NCBI GenBank assembly: GCA_001770205.1
Contig: MEQL01000052.1
Span: 1-64,000, forward strand
DNA length: 64,000 nt
Source of the DNA: Bdellovibrionales bacterium RIFOXYD12_FULL_39_22
Lineage (GTDB): Bacteria; Bdellovibrionota; Bacteriovoracia; Bacteriovoracales; Bacteriovoracaceae
Direction: 5' to 3'
The notes under the pieces are model-generated. The model was given only the letters and a program-made list of their open reading frames with translations, made no database searches and was not told the origin of the DNA. This document shows, piece after piece, positions 52,989 to 63,087 of the stretch; positions within the stretch are counted from its first letter, which is position 1, and the number at the start of each line of letters is the position of its first letter. The position numbers and the translations under genes were made by a program.

Positions 52989-53123
52989 CCAAATTGCAAT
53001 TTTTTTGCTATTGTTCTGGATAAGTCACCTTGTTTTATGATAAAAATTCCACTCGTTACTATTTTTTTGCTCGCAATTATAATGCTAGCAAATCGTTACC
53101 TATCCAACAAGGAGAGATATAAT

Positions 53124-56100
53124 ATGAGCAAATCATTCGCTGAACTTCCCTACAATCCGCACAATCTTCCACGTGAATTAAAACAATTTTATATCTCTGC
53201 CAGTAATGATGAAATCAAATCCATGTTAAAAGAATTGGGCCTCTCCTCTTTGGAGCAACTGTATGAGCACATTCCAGAAGAAATTAAATTCAAAGAAGAT
53301 GTTGGCATCGGGCCGGGACTATCCTATCAAGAATTAATTGAACACATTTCTTCTATCGGAGCAAAAAATCATCTGGCCAGCTCCTTTATCGGCGATGGAT
53401 TAAAAAATTTCAAAGAAAGTGAAATTGTGAAATATGTTAGCAATATACGTGAACTTACGACCGCCTACACTCCTTATCAACCAGAGCGAAGTCAAGGGAC
53501 ACTGCAAACGCTTTGGCTTTATGCTCAGACACTCAGCAAATTGACTGGATTTGAAGCAATTAACTCCTCTATGTATGATCGGGCCACCTGCCTTTTTGAA
53601 GCATTAAATAGTGCCATTAAAATTGTTCGCAATAGCGATAGCGTTATTGTGTGTGAATCAATTTATCCGGGAGATATGAGCGTTTTAAAAACAATGGCCA
53701 CAGAATGCAAGATCAATATTGTGACAGTTCCTGTCGATAGTAAGACGGGTACCACTTCTCTTTCCACTCTAAAAGATGCCGCCAAATCCCTAGGCCCACG
53801 ACTAGCGGCGATTGCCTTCCCGCAAGTAAATGCTCTCGGCAATTTAGAAGATGTTAATGCTATTGTTGATTTGACCTCCGAATTTAAAACCTGTTCTATT
53901 GCTATTGTTGATCCTATGCTCCTGGCCACCGGAGGATTAATTCCGCCTTCTCAATTTGGCAGCAACAAGCAAGGAGCAACCATCCTGGTTGCCGAGGGAC
54001 AGCATTTGGCGATCGGCCCTAATTTTGGAGGCCCAGGCCTTGGTATTTTTGGTATTCGCTATGATGATAAAAATAAAAACAATATCCGCACCACTCCAGG
54101 ACGCTACGTCGGCAAAGGCAAGGATAATACTGGCAAAACTGCACTTTCGATCATTCTCTCCACTCGTGAGCAGCACATTCGCCGAGAAAAGGCCACTTCC
54201 AACATCTGCTCAAATGAGGCCTTTATTGCCTCCTTGGCCGGAGCATCTATATTGCAAAAGGGAGAGACCGGTATGCAAAAAAGCTGTATCACCGCTCGTA
54301 AAAATTGTGAGTGGGTGGCAACTCACCTTCTACAATTTGCCGGAGTAAAACTCGCCTATCCAGAAACTCCCTTTTTTAATGAATTTACCATAGAACTTCC
54401 ATGCAGTACCGCCACCTTCATTCAAAAAGGACGCCTGGCCGGATTGCATGTGGGCGTAGATGTTTCCAAAAGGGATAACACAAAACGCAATCTTTTAATG
54501 ATCTGTGTTACCGACATACAAGAAGAGACAGATTTTAAAAAGCTATTTTCCTTTTTCACTAGCGAATTTGGTGATCCCAAAACGGCCGCAAGCGAAATAC
54601 CTCACGGGCCTTATAAATTTAATCGCACAGCCAATATGATTAATAATCCCGTTTATACCTACGATAAACCACATATTCCGTCCATTCCTAGTGCCCTTTT
54701 ACGTCAAGGCCCAGTTGGCCTTCCCCATTTTTCACTCGATGAGTTAAAAAGATTTTATGATAAACTAGGAGCGCAAAATGTAAGTCCTGATAGTAACATT
54801 TACCCACTTGGTTCTTGCACCATGAAGTACAACCCCTACGTCAACGACTACTTGGCCGGACTTTCTAATTTTACACAAACTCATCCACAAGCACCTATCG
54901 AAGATGTACAAGGTAATTTAGAAATTTTGTACAATATCCAAGAGATGTTTAAAAAAATCACTGGCCTTGCGGCAGTTACTACTCAACCAGTGGCCGGAGC
55001 ACATGGAGAATTAACTGGAATAAAACTCTTCCAGGCCTACCATAGAAATAATGGAGAAGATAAGCAGCGCAACGTAATCATCATTCCACACTCCGCCCAC
55101 GGAACTAATCCGGCCACAGCAACAGTTGCTGGCCTTGAAACTAAATGTGTTGATGGAATAAATTATGGAATCGTTCTGGTGGAGGCGGGAGCTAATGGCC
55201 AAATTGATCTTACACAATTAAAAAAACTCGTCAGTGAATATAACAAACGCATCGTTGGTGTTATGATAACCAACCCCAACACCTCTGGAATTTTTGAAAC
55301 CAAATTTAAAGAAATTGCTGACCTTATTCACTCTGTCGGCGGACTAGTATATATGGACGGTGCCAATATGAACGCTATTGCTGGTTGGGTTAATATGGGC
55401 AAAATGGGGGTCGATGCTATCCATAACAATCTACACAAAACATGGTCTATATCTCACGGAGGTGGTGGCCCAGGCGATGCTATCGTTGCCGTCTCCAGTA
55501 AATTGATCGATTTCCTACCTGGTATTCAAGTGGTAAAAAAAGGTAATCTTTTCACCACCGAAATCCCCCAAAAGAGCATTGGCCAAATGCATCGCCATTT
55601 TGGAAACTTTGCGCACAAGATTCGTGGCCTTAGTTATCTCAAGGCCCTCGGAGACCAAGGCATTCGCCAAATGTCGGCAGTAGCAGTACTATCTGCACGC
55701 TACCTAGAGAAAAAGTTAAAAAATATTTACTCCTTTTTACCGGCCAATACCAATAATGAAATTCGTATGCACGAATTCATTATTACGTTAGCAGAGGAAC
55801 TTTTTGCTAAAATTGAAAAATCTGGAACTGCCAAAGCGCAAGTTATTGCTAAGGTTGGCAAACTATTTTTGGATTATGGACTACATGCTCCAACCGTGGC
55901 ATTTCCAGAAGTGTTTGGACTTATGATTGAACCAACCGAGAGCTATACCAAAGCAGAACTTGATCGCTTCATTGATATTCTAACTGAAATGCACTATTTG
56001 CTGAATGAAAACCCAGAAGTCTTAAAAACCGTTCCTCATTTTACCCCAATTGGGAAAGTGGACGAGGTAGACGCTAATAAAAATGTGCTGCTATCTGAAG

Positions 56101-56216
56101 CACTAACCTCTCTTCCAGAAGTTTATCCCAATAAAATTACTCCTACCGAACTAGCGCAAATGAGTGTTCGAGATATTACCAAGAAAATTGTTGAGGCACA
56201 TAAAAAAGCGATGTAG
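53124..56216 (+). CDS. gcvP: Glycine dehydrogenase (P protein), single chain resembling fused GcvPA+GcvPB
   Basis: TAYTPYQPERSQG, REQHIRREKATSNIC, PLGSCTMKYN, DGANMNA, NLHKT..HGGGGPG, IEPTES; AGGAG RBS before ATG 53124. Confidence 0.93.
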   Translation: MSKSFAELPYNPHNLPRELKQFYISASNDEIKSMLKELGLSSLEQLYEHIPEEIKFKEDVGIGPGLSYQELIEHISSIGAKNHLASSFIGDGLKNFKESEIVKYVSNIRELTTAYTPYQPERSQGTLQTLWLYAQTLSKLTGFEAINSSMYDRATCLFEALNSAIKIVRNSDSVIVCESIYPGDMSVLKTMATECKINIVTVPVDSKTGTTSLSTLKDAAKSLGPRLAAIAFPQVNALGNLEDVNAIVDLTSEFKTCSIAIVDPMLLATGGLIPPSQFGSNKQGATILVAEGQHLAIGPNFGGPGLGIFGIRYDDKNKNNIRTTPGRYVGKGKDNTGKTALSIILSTREQHIRREKATSNICSNEAFIASLAGASILQKGETGMQKSCITARKNCEWVATHLLQFAGVKLAYPETPFFNEFTIELPCSTATFIQKGRLAGLHVGVDVSKRDNTKRNLLMICVTDIQEETDFKKLFSFFTSEFGDPKTAASEIPHGPYKFNRTANMINNPVYTYDKPHIPSIPSALLRQGPVGLPHFSLDELKRFYDKLGAQNVSPDSNIYPLGSCTMKYNPYVNDYLAGLSNFTQTHPQAPIEDVQGNLEILYNIQEMFKKITGLAAVTTQPVAGAHGELTGIKLFQAYHRNNGEDKQRNVIIIPHSAHGTNPATATVAGLETKCVDGINYGIVLVEAGANGQIDLTQLKKLVSEYNKRIVGVMITNPNTSGIFETKFKEIADLIHSVGGLVYMDGANMNAIAGWVNMGKMGVDAIHNNLHKTWSISHGGGGPGDAIVAVSSKLIDFLPGIQVVKKGNLFTTEIPQKSIGQMHRHFGNFAHKIRGLSYLKALGDQGIRQMSAVAVLSARYLEKKLKNIYSFLPANTNNEIRMHEFIITLAEELFAKIEKSGTAKAQVIAKVGKLFLDYGLHAPTVAFPEVFGLMIEPTESYTKAELDRFIDILTEMHYLLNENPEVLKTVPHFTPIGKVDEVDANKNVLLSEALTSLPEVYPNKITPTELAQMSVRDITKKIVEAHKKAM

Positions 56217-58957: not shown

Positions 58958-59185
58958 TCGGATTGCTCTCACAAGTAGCAAGAAGCTACTCCTCCTAACA
59001 AACTAAACAGGTCAGGTAAAAGACTTGGCGTATGTGCTTATGATCAGATTAAAGACCACTTCGGACAGTAAGGTATCCCCCTTGCTGTCCCATACTGCGC
59101 CAATCGGCCATATTAGGGTTTATTGAATAAACTAAAATTCCGATACTTAAACAGAGAGGTTACTAACAAAAGAGGGTTGCCCGAA

Positions 59186-60505
59186 ATGGCAAGAAACTGT
59201 TACAAATTCATATCAACTTTAGGGCCTTTGAGTCTATCATTCTATAACGTCGTCATTTCTAAATTCCTTCTAATCGCTTATTCCATCACTGGAATTATCT
59301 ATGCAAATGAATTTGTAAGGCCGAACTCTCCTTTTGATTATGCCACTCAATCCGCCTTAACCGTAGAAAATACTCATGCTGTTTCTGGCGTAAAAGTTGC
59401 GTGGGCCAACTACGAAGCACTCCGGCGAGATTTTGTAATTCTTCGCAACTACTCAAATGATCAAATCGACAAGTGGCTTTTAAAAAATTTTTCGCGTATT
59501 GGAGCAGATCAACCCCTTTTAAATAATATTAGAAATTCTCCAATCCCTATAGATGAGTCCGCGCCAAAGGCCGTGGCATACCGCCCAGCAAACTGGCGCA
59601 GATCTGCTGCTTTGGAAGCACTTGATGACGATGGTAACATTGTCGGAATGGTTGATATTAAAGGATTCGGACATGGTGCTCAATCAGAGTTTGTATACAA
59701 TGATGGAACGAGATCCGAAATTCCCTCTAGTAATTCTGCTTATAAACAAGTCGAAGAGGCGAAAAAACTGCAAGGAAAAATAGACGCGTTGAATAAATTA
59801 AAAGTCAGAGGACACAGCAATGGCCTTATGAGTTTAGGTGAGGCAATCGCTGAAATGATAAGAGAGCAGGCCATTTCCAAAATATTTAAACACTCGGCCA
59901 GCGGATTAGAGGCCGTTGAATCCTATGCGATACTAAAACTTCCATTTAATATTTTAAAAGAGGATGGACAAGAAGAGCCTGCTTCTCTTTACTTACGACA
60001 GGCCAATGAGGGAAGAAATAGTGGATTATTTACACCATCGTTTGCTTACCGTGATCGATCAGGAAAGTTTCAATATACATCTTCAGGATCTGCCATTGAT
60101 TTTGGAGGAGCTACTTTTGAGGAAATTGAAATTGCAAGACTATGGGGAGAATCAATTCTGCAACAACCTGGCAAATGGGATCCTCAAAAAACAAAACCAT
60201 GGGAATATGCCCATGACACAGCATGGGCATACGCCAAACAAGGTAATCGCCAAATTATTGAAACACATCGGCAAGAAATGTTATCAGAAATAGATAATTG
60301 GATTGCTAAACATCCAGAAATTTTTTCATCTAATGGCGACAATAGTGAATACCTCAACTGGGTGGAGAAACATAAGGATCTGCCATACTCTGAAAAAAAG
60401 CTTGCCTTTAATAAATTTCAAAAAACAAACCTCCTCCTTCTTGGATTGAAAAGGCCGTTCTCGGAAATGACTGGGAATATGCTGAAAAAGCAGTCCTTAC
60501 TTTAA
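59186..60505 (+). CDS. Secreted SelO/YdiU-like kinase-fold domain (5' part of a frameshifted gene)
   Basis: Hydrophobic N-terminus; MVDIKGFG, NGLMSLGEAIAE, AIDFG echo SelO LQLKG.G / DGR..LR..IRE / TIDYG. Confidence 0.5.
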   Translation: MARNCYKFISTLGPLSLSFYNVVISKFLLIAYSITGIIYANEFVRPNSPFDYATQSALTVENTHAVSGVKVAWANYEALRRDFVILRNYSNDQIDKWLLKNFSRIGADQPLLNNIRNSPIPIDESAPKAVAYRPANWRRSAALEALDDDGNIVGMVDIKGFGHGAQSEFVYNDGTRSEIPSSNSAYKQVEEAKKLQGKIDALNKLKVRGHSNGLMSLGEAIAEMIREQAISKIFKHSASGLEAVESYAILKLPFNILKEDGQEEPASLYLRQANEGRNSGLFTPSFAYRDRSGKFQYTSSGSAIDFGGATFEEIEIARLWGESILQQPGKWDPQKTKPWEYAHDTAWAYAKQGNRQIIETHRQEMLSEIDNWIAKHPEIFSSNGDNSEYLNWVEKHKDLPYSEKKLAFNKFQKTNLLLLGLKRPFSEMTGNMLKKQSLL

Positions 60506-61554
60506 ACAAGTACAACGACAAAGAATCACTATCCATTATTGGAAAAGTTTTTTCAGATCCAATTTTAAAAAAACGCGGAGGAAGAATCAGGGAAAATGCA
60601 ATAATGGCATTGATTAAAAATCAAGAAAAAGAGGTAATTGATTTAATTGAAATTGCATTATCAGATGAAAACGTAGACGTAAAAATAAGCGCACTAAAGG
60701 TACTGGCAGATGCAGATAGAGATGATCAGCGCTTTTTTACGTTACTTAAAAAGGCACTTAACGATGATAATTTGGCCGTCAAGCAAAATGCTATACTTTC
60801 CCTCTCCGGCAACCAAAATCCAGAAGCATTCGCTTTAATAAATGATCTTCTAGAGAATCCAAATGATGAGATTAGAAAATTTGCTGCGATGGCACTATCT
60901 GGGCATAAAAACAATCCACAATCACTAATGTTGATTAAAAAAGCACTTAACGATAGTAGTTTGAAAGTCAAAGAGAGCGCCTTGCTATCACTGGCCGGAC
61001 GCACTGATGATGAATCTATCGCTTTGATAGAAAAATATCTTTTTACGACAGATCCTTCGTTGATAAAACTAAAAGAACATGCGGCAATGGCCCTCTATGG
61101 CATCCATGACATAAAAGCGCTAGTTTTGATAGAAAAAGCACTCGATATACAAGAATACTTCGTACAGTATAAAGCAATTCTAGCACTATCTGGATACAAC
61201 GATAACGAGTCATTGAAGGTTATAAGGAAGGCCTTTAATATTAAAGAACATGATTTTAAAATTGATGTTCTAAAAACCTTGTGCGGACGAACCGACCAAG
61301 GCTCACTGGAGCTATTAGAGGAAATAATTCGCGGGGAAAATGGCAAATTACGAAATTTGGCAATTGATCTTCTGGCCCTACGAGAAGATTTTCATGCCAC
61401 TAAACTAATAAAAAAACTACTTGAAACAGATAAATCATTAAGTAATATGGAGCGCGGCCGTCTTGAGTATGGCCTATTAAAAGAAATGGTTGCCAAGAAA
61501 ACTACAACTGCAAAGTGCCTGGCCTTAGCATTGCAAAGACTTTCCTCCAAATAA
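60415..61554 (+). CDS. HEAT/PBS-lyase repeat domain (3' part of the frameshifted gene)
   Basis: Frame open from 60415; about 31-aa repeats (LIKKAL.D....VK..A..AL.G) begin before the ATG at 60604. Confidence 0.75.
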   Translation: MSKNKPPPSWIEKAVLGNDWEYAEKAVLTLNKYNDKESLSIIGKVFSDPILKKRGGRIRENAIMALIKNQEKEVIDLIEIALSDENVDVKISALKVLADADRDDQRFFTLLKKALNDDNLAVKQNAILSLSGNQNPEAFALINDLLENPNDEIRKFAAMALSGHKNNPQSLMLIKKALNDSSLKVKESALLSLAGRTDDESIALIEKYLFTTDPSLIKLKEHAAMALYGIHDIKALVLIEKALDIQEYFVQYKAILALSGYNDNESLKVIRKAFNIKEHDFKIDVLKTLCGRTDQGSLELLEEIIRGENGKLRNLAIDLLALREDFHATKLIKKLLETDKSLSNMERGRLEYGLLKEMVAKKTTTAKCLALALQRLSSK

Positions 61555-61572: not shown

Positions 61573-61611
61573 AAAAAAAAGAGAGGCCCTCATCCTGAGG
61601 GCCTCTTCTTT
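61573..61611. terminator. Bidirectional intrinsic terminator
   Basis: A8-GAGAGGCCCTCA-TCC-TGAGGGCCTCT-TCTTT between convergent genes. Confidence 0.88.
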
Positions 61612-61677: not shown

Positions 61678-62571
61678 TCAATTATTTGCCAAAATCTTCA
61701 TCAATGCTTTTATATTCGTAATTCTGGTAACATCCTCTCCCCGACAACCATCCTCAGTGCACTGTTGTGGACGGCGACAGCGTGAGTCGTAATCATAAAC
61801 ATAGTCATTTTCTCCTCTAACCAAGATTCCTTCAACTACTCCAGTTTGACTATCAAATACCGCTGACCCGGAATTACCTCCAAAAGTATCTAAATTAGTC
61901 ACAAAATATTTCGCAAAGGCCGTCTCGCGTACACGCGCTCCTGCAGAAATTTTAGTTGGCAGGCCAGATGGGTGGCCAATTACTACAACCTCAGTATTCA
62001 TGCCAATTTTTCCTTCTCTTCTTACAATAAGTGGGGCACGATCTGTCACCGGTCGGTCCAATTTTATCAGTGCATAGTCGTCACTATTTGATGAAGACTG
62101 GGCCCTTTCAACAATCGACACACAAGAATAAACACTACTTTTTAACAATGTTGAAATAATCGGACGGCCCTCGTCAGTAACATTATAATCAAAGGCCCAT
62201 TTGAATCCATCACAATCACTCTGCTTGGTCACGCAATGTCCAGCAGTAACCAGCAAATCTGGCCCCACCAAAAAACCAGAACATCGGGCAACGGCAGTTT
62301 GATTGGCAAAACGCTCATCAGCACAGAGATTCATTCCCGACTGTAAAGTTCCACCTTTGATCGTATAATAGTCACTAACACCGTCGTCAATAAAAGTAGA
62401 ATTGCCGATTTGTGCAGCAGTTGACTGCGCTAACTGAAGATGTAATCCATCAGTTGCTTCGAAGAGATCAAGTCGATTATCGTCACCGTATATAACTTTA
62501 TTGCGAGCAAACAATGACGAAGATAAAATTAATAATATGCCAACAATTGCAGAAACCATCCATGAATTCAT
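61678..62571 (-). CDS. Secreted trypsin-like (S1) serine protease
   Basis: Signal peptide; CSGFLV, TAGHC, DYAL, GNSGS catalytic triad motifs. Confidence 0.93.
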   Translation of the reverse strand: MNSWMVSAIVGILLILSSSLFARNKVIYGDDNRLDLFEATDGLHLQLAQSTAAQIGNSTFIDDGVSDYYTIKGGTLQSGMNLCADERFANQTAVARCSGFLVGPDLLVTAGHCVTKQSDCDGFKWAFDYNVTDEGRPIISTLLKSSVYSCVSIVERAQSSSNSDDYALIKLDRPVTDRAPLIVRREGKIGMNTEVVVIGHPSGLPTKISAGARVRETAFAKYFVTNLDTFGGNSGSAVFDSQTGVVEGILVRGENDYVYDYDSRCRRPQQCTEDGCRGEDVTRITNIKALMKILANN

Positions 62572-62706: not shown

Positions 62707-63087
62707 CTAACAACTTCTTACATGAGTAGAATCTGTTCGAAAACTCCAGCGCCGCCCATCCATATCAATCAGGTAAAACACTCCACTTTTATCCTCTATA
62801 ATAATTTCTCTACTCAGCTCTTCTTTGCGATACAACAAAAAACGCCCTTTCTTTATTAATGCTTCTAACTCTTCACTAGTATCCATGAGAAAATTTAAAT
62901 CTGTTGGAACAACTTTTTCTCTGTTATCTGAAGAAATATTCACAAAGCGAAAGCAAATACCATCATAGAATAAATCAACATCGCATCCGTTTGCCACTGT
63001 ATCAACATCCAAAAGCTGGCCCAAAAAATTGGCCAGCAAATTCTTATTAGTTGTATATATGGTTATACCAGAAAAAGAGATACTCAT
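62707..63087 (-). CDS. VOC/glyoxalase-like small protein
   Basis: ITIYT...F...LL; FYLID.DG.RW C-terminal motif; coupled to the ftsH stop. Confidence 0.55.
   Translation of the reverse strand: MSISFSGITIYTTNKNLLANFLGQLLDVDTVANGCDVDLFYDGICFRFVNISSDNREKVVPTDLNFLMDTSEELEALIKKGRFLLYRKEELSREIIIEDKSGVFYLIDMDGRRWSFRTDSTHVRSC

Follow-up and report, generated by a model that had tools for sequence, protein, structure and literature searches.

The so-called pseudokinase SelO (YdiU) is a cytoplasmic or mitochondrial protein that has been shown to flip ATP and to AMPylate proteins. For the Pseudomonas syringae enzyme, a review (PMC8097203) has K113 and E136 holding the γ-phosphate of the flipped ATP with the assistance of R176 and R183, and N253 and D262 binding Mg with D262 as the base; in YdiU the number of each of these six residues is lower by 6 (checked). 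The same review reports that C272 and C476 form a regulatory disulfide. The subject of this report is P0001, an open reading frame (ORF) that occupies nucleotides (nt) 59186–60505 in the first 64,000 nt of contig MEQL01000052.1 (assembly GCA_001770205.1; this whole stretch is called the window below) of Bdellovibrionales bacterium RIFOXYD12_FULL_39_22. With moderate confidence, this ORF can be read as the catalytic domain of a Sec-exported family of distant SelO/YdiU homologs that transfer a nucleoside monophosphate (NMP), truncated in this genome by a frame break.

The initial annotation of this DNA, made from its letters alone, described five motifs that follow a hydrophobic N-terminus in the same order as in SelO/YdiU. 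The hydrophobic stretch is there (residues 21–39 of P0001), the five motifs all occur in that order, and profile alignment with hhalign arrives at the same pairs with SelO for WRRSA, VDIKGFG, NGLMSLGEAIAE and IDFG. The parts of the ORF that matter for the comparison are these:

59168–59173, forward strand: Shine-Dalgarno-like AGAGGG (read from the sequence), whose GAGGG core ends 12 nt before ATG 59186
59186–60505, forward strand: SelO-like ORF P0001, 439 amino acids (aa) plus stop, start ATG 59186, stop TAA 60503–60505
59186–59305, forward strand: predicted Sec signal peptide, residues 1–40, core about 21–39, ending ...IIYA and followed by NEFVRP
59396–59410, forward strand: VAWAN, residues 71–75, a motif of P0001
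59594–59608, forward strand: WRRSA, residues 137–141, paired with SelO GDGRA (hhalign)
59651–59671, forward strand: VDIKGFG, residues 156–162, with the β3 lysine K159, paired with SelO LQLKGSG (hhalign)
59819–59854, forward strand: NGLMSLGEAIAE, residues 212–223, αC helix with E223, paired with SelO GDGkAvL..sIRE (hhalign)
59996–60016, forward strand: RQANEGR, with R271 and R277; LYLRQA aligns to SelO iVLRVA (hhalign)
60053–60106, forward strand: stretch from the catalytic loop to DFG, with D290, G293, Q296 and then I-D305-F-G
60095–60106, forward strand: IDFG, residues 304–307, paired with SelO IDYG

An AlphaFold2 model of P0001, built on an alignment of 130 homologs, has a predicted local distance difference test score (pLDDT) of 85.4 and a predicted template modeling score (pTM) of 0.84. 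When this model was used as a Foldseek query, the top nine Protein Data Bank (PDB) rows were all SelO/YdiU (E 6e-4 to 1.7e-3), and comparison by VIA-align with seven SelO/YdiU entries from among the Foldseek candidates gave Z of 13.6–14.3 and a root-mean-square deviation (rmsd) of 3.8–4.3 over 221–233 aligned residues that are 14–15% identical. A scan of 48,161 chains that is independent of Foldseek also placed a SelO chain, 6eac_A, first (Z 14.2), with NIS siderophore synthetases at Z 6.6–8.2 and protein kinases at 5.8 or lower. A second model, that of the 366-aa relative P0136 (pLDDT 93.2), gave Z 14.9 with SelO over 250 aligned residues, and its other neighbors were NIS synthetases (Z 7.2–9.0) and Rio2 (7.1). 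In the scans with the two models, the SelO matches have an rmsd of 3.9–4.2 over 233–250 aligned residues. The kinase-like fold proposed in the initial annotation is thus what the models display, and it is closest to SelO/YdiU by a wide margin (Z 14.2–14.3 for P0001, as against 8.2 for the next family); a predicted fold that is not kinase-like, which the annotation had named as the finding that would speak against it, was not what emerged, since SelO is the best match in these model comparisons. SelO/YdiU clusters were also among the ESM Atlas rows, with scores that the tool rates as leads only. Sequence-based searches for matches among solved structures, with P0001 alone and with the 130-sequence profile, returned no kinase; they gave weak matches to the helical C-terminal part, from the amyloid-precursor E2 and designed repeat proteins, and these are treated as composition or repeat noise.

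The family to which P0001 belongs is large. An exhaustive HMMER search found 453 representative clusters (clustered at 50% identity) at E ≤ 1e-3, 88 of them at E ≤ 1e-30. A Pfam scan of P0001 at E ≤ 1 gave no family and NCBIfam gave none either, SelO is not among the 25 listed of the 35 families that 77 relatives matched in a Pfam scan at E ≤ 0.01, and 14 short relatives gave no SelO match even at E ≤ 5. A literature search found no description of the family, and the accessible portion of a preprint on new kinase-like families (10.64898/2026.09.18.752743) mentions neither SelO nor HEAT. Its sequence relationship to SelO becomes visible through a short subfamily of 20 sequences (P0097, P0111, P0116, P0127, P0136, P0143, P0148 and 13 others), about 330–480 aa long and without repeats, which has GE.[IV]RE, as in the IRE of SelO, and one extra helix before the catalytic loop. 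A SelO profile was made from 30 canonical SelO genes taken from genomes in this phylum, and against it the short subfamily aligns in hhalign (probability 72%, E 3.4e-5) along a stretch of 240 columns that reaches from the N-terminal extension to beyond the DFG; the control with the SelO profile reversed gives E 0.15. The IDFG/IDYG pairing of the short subfamily falls within this alignment. The main family matches the short subfamily at E 1e-63, and its homology to SelO, although transitive through the short subfamily, is sound.

Conservation was counted in the alignment of 130 homologs, most of which are 25–50% identical to P0001. R139 is kept in 127/128, K159 in 129/130, G162, G213 and E223 each in 130/130, R271 in 128/130, R277 in 100/129, D290 in 99/124, Q296 in 126/129 and D305 in 129/130; because the motifs are near-invariant among so many homologs, they are more than chance resemblances. 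The hhalign pairing puts K159 opposite SelO K113 (YdiU K107), E223 opposite SelO E136 (YdiU E130, the E of IRE) and R271 opposite SelO R176 (YdiU R170). R277 is probably the counterpart of SelO R183 (YdiU R177), its spacing from R271 being 6 residues as against 7. From Q296 to D305 is nine residues, as from N253 to D262 in SelO, with a shared Gly at +5, and by this correspondence D305 would stand for D262 and Q296 for the Mg-binding Asn. It had been remarked that the catalytic-loop NTDN is not evident, and this is correct; only Gln (Q296) is found where Asn is expected. Judged from the alignment, then, four of the six named active-site residues of SelO have conserved counterparts in K159, E223, R271 and D305. 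The word pseudokinase in the initial annotation is not borne out, as the near-invariance of the Lys/Glu/Asp set and of the SelO-type Arg makes an active enzyme the more likely case. The opposite idea, that these proteins are exported scaffolds or binding proteins, true pseudoenzymes that keep only the fold, would agree with the absence of any known activity, with a C-lobe that is strongly reduced relative to that of SelO and with the missing NTDN; but in 130 sequences that share only about 30–50% identity, charged residues stand near-invariant where catalytic residues are expected, which is the pattern of an active site and not of a scaffold, and there is very little chance that this explanation is the right one.

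The same residues bear on the kind of chemistry. A conventional exported kinase would hold ATP in the usual orientation and pass its γ-phosphate to an acceptor in the envelope or in prey, whether protein, lipid or sugar, and the set of Lys, Glu and DFG Asp is the canonical kinase set as well; the fairly conserved D290 (99/124), 15 residues before DFG, could be its catalytic base, and many kinases appear at Z 4–7 in the structure scans. SelO, however, stands 6 Z units above any kinase, adenylate chemistry is also what the next neighbors (the NIS synthetases) perform, no motif resembling HRD was observed, and R271, which aligns to the γ-phosphate Arg of SelO, is kept in 128/130; to our knowledge, canonical kinases have no counterpart of this Arg. 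Such a kinase is improbable here. The family to which P0001 belongs is a distant, exported sister family of SelO and probably an active nucleotide-using transferase. Its enzymes would bind a nucleoside triphosphate (NTP) in the manner of SelO, with the phosphates buried and the γ-phosphate held by Lys and Arg, and would then attach an NMP, either AMP or UMP, to an extracytoplasmic acceptor, which may be a protein.

Export is indicated by the leader. ATG 59186 is preferred as the start of P0001 because AGAGGG lies 12 nt upstream of it, and the upstream TTG 59123 is less likely. The best 10-residue hydropathy window of P0001 has a value of 2.49, and by the same hydropathy script a hydrophobic leader (window at least 1.8) is present in 112 of the 119 relatives that have at least 15 residues upstream of a conserved R-P. 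The relatives' leaders end in A-x-A-like (small-x-small) sites just before a conserved [ND]-E-x-x-R-P, and no lipobox pattern was found. A family-wide Sec-type leader thus upholds the annotated export, whereas "effector", the other half of that claim, goes unsupported, as nothing shows delivery beyond the periplasm. More speculatively, and with odds that we would place somewhat against it, the family, of which P0001 is a truncated member, may form a large undescribed extracytoplasmic branch of the SelO type, exported by Sec, with a repeat arm that selects the target and a single C-terminal Cys that turns the enzyme on or off with redox conditions in the compartment it enters, by which predatory Bacteriovoracaceae-like bacteria modify prey or envelope proteins with nucleotides leaked from prey. 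If that is so, it would contain the first extracytoplasmic SelO-like AMPylase or UMPylase, as far as the searches show.

The remainder of the protein, as it exists in relatives, is found here in a different frame, and the parts concerned are as follows:

60415–60505, forward strand: 91-nt overlap of the two open frames (stop-to-stop frames), with the frame break inside
60604–61554, forward strand: HEAT-repeat ORF in the −1 frame, 316 aa from its first ATG, PF13646 HEAT_2 (E 2.6e-24)
61581–61607, both strands: bidirectional terminator-like hairpin, 12-pair stem with 7 GC pairs, 3′ of the HEAT ORF

In relatives the domain runs on into a variable arm, which has HEAT repeats in 38 of 77 (Pfam scan), and whatever this arm is, most relatives end in a conserved Cys motif. 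A Cys lies in the last 20 residues in 113 of 150 relatives, as against 5.4% expected from the Cys content elsewhere, and in 57 of these 113 it is the sole Cys beyond residue 45. It is usually 4–14 residues from the end, with L at +3 in 34/109 and L or F at +4 in 64/109, and in the short forms it comes directly after the last helix of the domain. Canonical SelO has a C-x-x end (..SCSS or ..FCGT) in 27/30. The end of the P0001 ORF, ...KKQSLL, contains no Cys and hence no antepenultimate Cys/Sec of the SelO type, whereas the HEAT ORF ends ..AKCLALALQRLSSK with a Cys 13 residues from its end and so carries the family motif. The match between P0001 and the fused relative P0002 extends to residue 405 (nt ~60400), and the −1 frame, which is open for 379 codons starting at 60415, aligns with P0002 as far as the C-terminal Cys of the latter (E 6e-36); in the same way, hits of the fused-family profile in this genome are collinear, at profile positions 4–398 and then 402–536. 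An assembly slip is excluded, since contigs of four sequencing runs, assembled independently of the window, are identical to it over 60250–60750 (501 bases, 0 differences, depth up to 91x); the runs may include the source sample, and their identity argues against such a slip rather than for independent populations. In this genome, the catalytic domain has thus been separated from its HEAT arm and Cys tail by a genuine −1 frame break. From the alignment with P0002, the break is most likely at or beside the A6 run 60420–60425. The protein had been called HEAT-repeat-fused, which is false at this locus: the HEAT ORF is a separate one, read in the −1 frame, and TAA 60503–60505 closes the SelO-like frame. 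Likewise, position 60430, given in the initial annotation as the end of the domain, is neither a stop nor a domain border and lies just past the probable break point.

The hairpin scan found no terminator between the SelO-like ORF and the HEAT ORF, and the two are therefore probably cotranscribed. If the ribosome were programmed to shift by −1 at the A-run, or the polymerase to slip there, the two would be joined and both a short and a HEAT-tailed form would be made. This idea could draw on the intact state of both frames, the lack of a terminator between them, their 91-nt overlap and the position of the A6 run exactly where homology switches frame. On the other side, the zero-frame reading of the run, CAA AAA ACA, does not fit the X XXY YYZ pattern of a slippery heptamer, and the RNA downstream, which folds as well as shuffled sequences do but no better (z −0.69), offers no stimulatory structure. 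Six As are also few for transcriptional slippage. With a noncanonical slippery site and an unremarkable downstream fold, such recoding is highly unlikely.

Decay deserves more weight, although it too seems unlikely. If this gene is a decaying pseudogene, the break has removed an arm and a Cys tail that were needed, and the gene no longer yields a functional product in this genome, whatever the role of the family elsewhere. In favor of this, the break is truly present in the DNA (0 differences among 4 runs in 501 bases), the HEAT ORF lacks a signal peptide and could not follow the domain out of the cell, the C-terminal Cys is retained in 113/150 relatives, repeat-free short forms among them, and the gene is dispensable in its lineage, being present in 2/35 other genomes of the window's own taxonomic family. 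Yet both frames are fully open (439 and 379 codons), the Shine-Dalgarno-like site, the leader and all the conserved catalytic residues are intact, and in the alignment the truncation point is beyond the last conserved helix of the domain. If P0001 is instead the NMP-transferring catalytic domain proposed above, the truncated product may be an unregulated or crippled version of an enzyme in which the repeat arm would serve as an adaptor for the substrate. The C-terminal Cys, which is flexible, would work in that enzyme as a regulatory or redox switch, comparable to the C-terminal Cys of SelO. A complex prediction with the SelO-like domain (residues 41–400) and the HEAT ORF scored 0.00 in two runs without controls and says nothing either way.

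Several observations weigh against the view that P0001 is an exported, NMP-transferring SelO homolog. The Foldseek TM-scores of the SelO/YdiU rows are low (0.22–0.31), and the main family is without helices that SelO has between the hinge and the catalytic loop. Compared directly with SelO in hhalign, the main family gives a weak alignment of the N-lobe only (E 0.0027, probability 11%), which becomes E 0.021 when the seven short-subfamily rows are removed (probabilities range from 2 to 11%); the C-lobe stretch Q296–D305 taken alone is not significant (E 0.23), and a PF02696 search of this genome at E ≤ 0.001 did not match the P0001 locus, its sole hit being a paralog on contig C5. The Asp of the SelO NTDN has no conserved counterpart, D290 (99/124) being six residues before Q296, and the residue equivalences rest on sequence alignment and spacing. 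The tail Cys of the P0136 model is not docked, the last five residues (362–366) having pLDDT below 50. The domain here is without a Cys tail, which 75% of relatives retain, and may for that reason be inactive in this copy. Outside the cytoplasm there is little ATP, and for P0001 there is no known donor, acceptor or secretion route beyond the periplasm. Lastly, no conserved gene neighborhood was found among seven related loci in which 18 neighboring ORFs were scanned.

The distribution of the gene is sporadic. It is present in 25 of 201 genomes of the phylum (this one included; two of the 25 match the HEAT part only), and six of the eight related loci in named genomes are from Bdellovibrionota metagenome-assembled genomes (MAGs). 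The neighbors at related loci differ (FolC/FolP, MetG, QueF, a sigma factor and a GGDEF protein), and there is consequently no operon-level clue to function. In the window, the product of the gene directly upstream of P0001 (57686–58957, forward strand) crosses the membrane several times and belongs to the TsoY (seleno)protein family (NF047644, E 5e-140); a literature search on "TsoY" turned up only unrelated papers. The 417-aa ORF upstream of the related gene at locus L039 is unrelated to this TsoY-like gene, and at locus L045 the upstream neighbor is an Rcas_1661-family thioredoxin-like (seleno)lipoprotein. In two of the eight loci examined, the SelO-like gene thus stands beside a gene from a family that includes selenoproteins, and the other loci have unrelated neighbors. 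Farther upstream (53037–56216, forward strand) is a fused GcvPA-GcvPB glycine dehydrogenase gene, listed as an ORF of 1059 aa; as this is ~50 aa longer than its relatives (~1005 aa), its true start is probably an internal Met near residue 30. This GcvP is 57–61% identical to proteins of Bacteriovoracaceae, Bacteriovorax and Halobacteriovorax, which agrees with the description of the genome as predator-like in the initial annotation. Downstream, a convergent gene (61678–62571, reverse strand) encodes a trypsin-like serine protease of 297 aa (PF13365, E 2.1e-16) whose N-terminus is hydrophobic, and has the terminator at 61581–61607 in common with the HEAT ORF. Beyond it lies a 126-aa ORF (62707–63087, reverse strand) without a Pfam or NCBIfam match, whose ATG overlaps by one base the stop codon of an upstream FtsH gene fragment.

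If P0001 and its relatives are what they are here proposed to be, a family of 453 clusters extends SelO chemistry to the periplasm or the cell exterior, and it supplies proteins with which the function of the conserved C-terminal Cys/Sec of SelO can be tested. The locus in the window is less valuable than the family, since it is broken, and full-length relatives such as the 665-aa protein of L039 are better subjects; the short subfamily, with its P0136 model at pLDDT 93.2, is the best material for structural work.

Among systems that can be compared with the family, one is in the same genome. A 614-aa cytoplasmic, kinase-like SelO paralog (contig C5, L008:928–2772, reverse strand) matches PF02696 at only 21.9 bits; it has no leader, it has GDGR and DGDN motifs of the SelO type and a Cys near its C-terminus (...ECREGL), and the search of this genome for relatives of P0001 did not return it. 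Of the ESM Atlas feature hits, the sole cluster annotated as SelO is a similar one of 614 aa from Bdellovibrionota (score 0.86, which by the tool's bar makes it no more than a lead). Canonical SelO (E ≤ 1e-20) was not found in this 94.6%-complete genome and is present in 9/9 sampled genomes of the same family.

Fam20C and CotH are secreted kinases, and the concept that they share with the P0001 family is that of a kinase fold outside the cytoplasm of its producer. NIS siderophore synthetases are ATP-dependent adenylating enzymes. They are the second-best structural neighbors (AsbB, AcsD, SbnC and IucA/IucC, Z 6.6–9.0) and differ in being cytoplasmic and ~550–600 aa long, and no sequence similarity between them and P0001 was found. 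The glutamylase SidJ, reported to be a type IV secretion system (T4SS) effector that needs calmodulin (PMC6858067), reaches Z 5.4 against the P0136 model and has no specific similarity to the P0001 family.

The best structural match to the family remains SelO/YdiU itself (PF02696; PDB 6EAC, 6K20, 6III, 6LNA and 9JYM). The P0001 family is without the NTDN, GHQFG and NHSD..GRY motifs of SelO and has a signal peptide, whereas SelO is cytoplasmic or mitochondrial; it also has a repeat arm that SelO does not have, inserted before the Cys motif (HEAT repeats in 38/77). The Cys is antepenultimate in SelO, and in the P0001 family it lies 4–14 residues from the end and is followed by hydrophobic residues. 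The two nevertheless share one order of motifs, which holds from the N-terminal extension as far as the DFG, and in both a conserved Cys stands close to the C-terminus.

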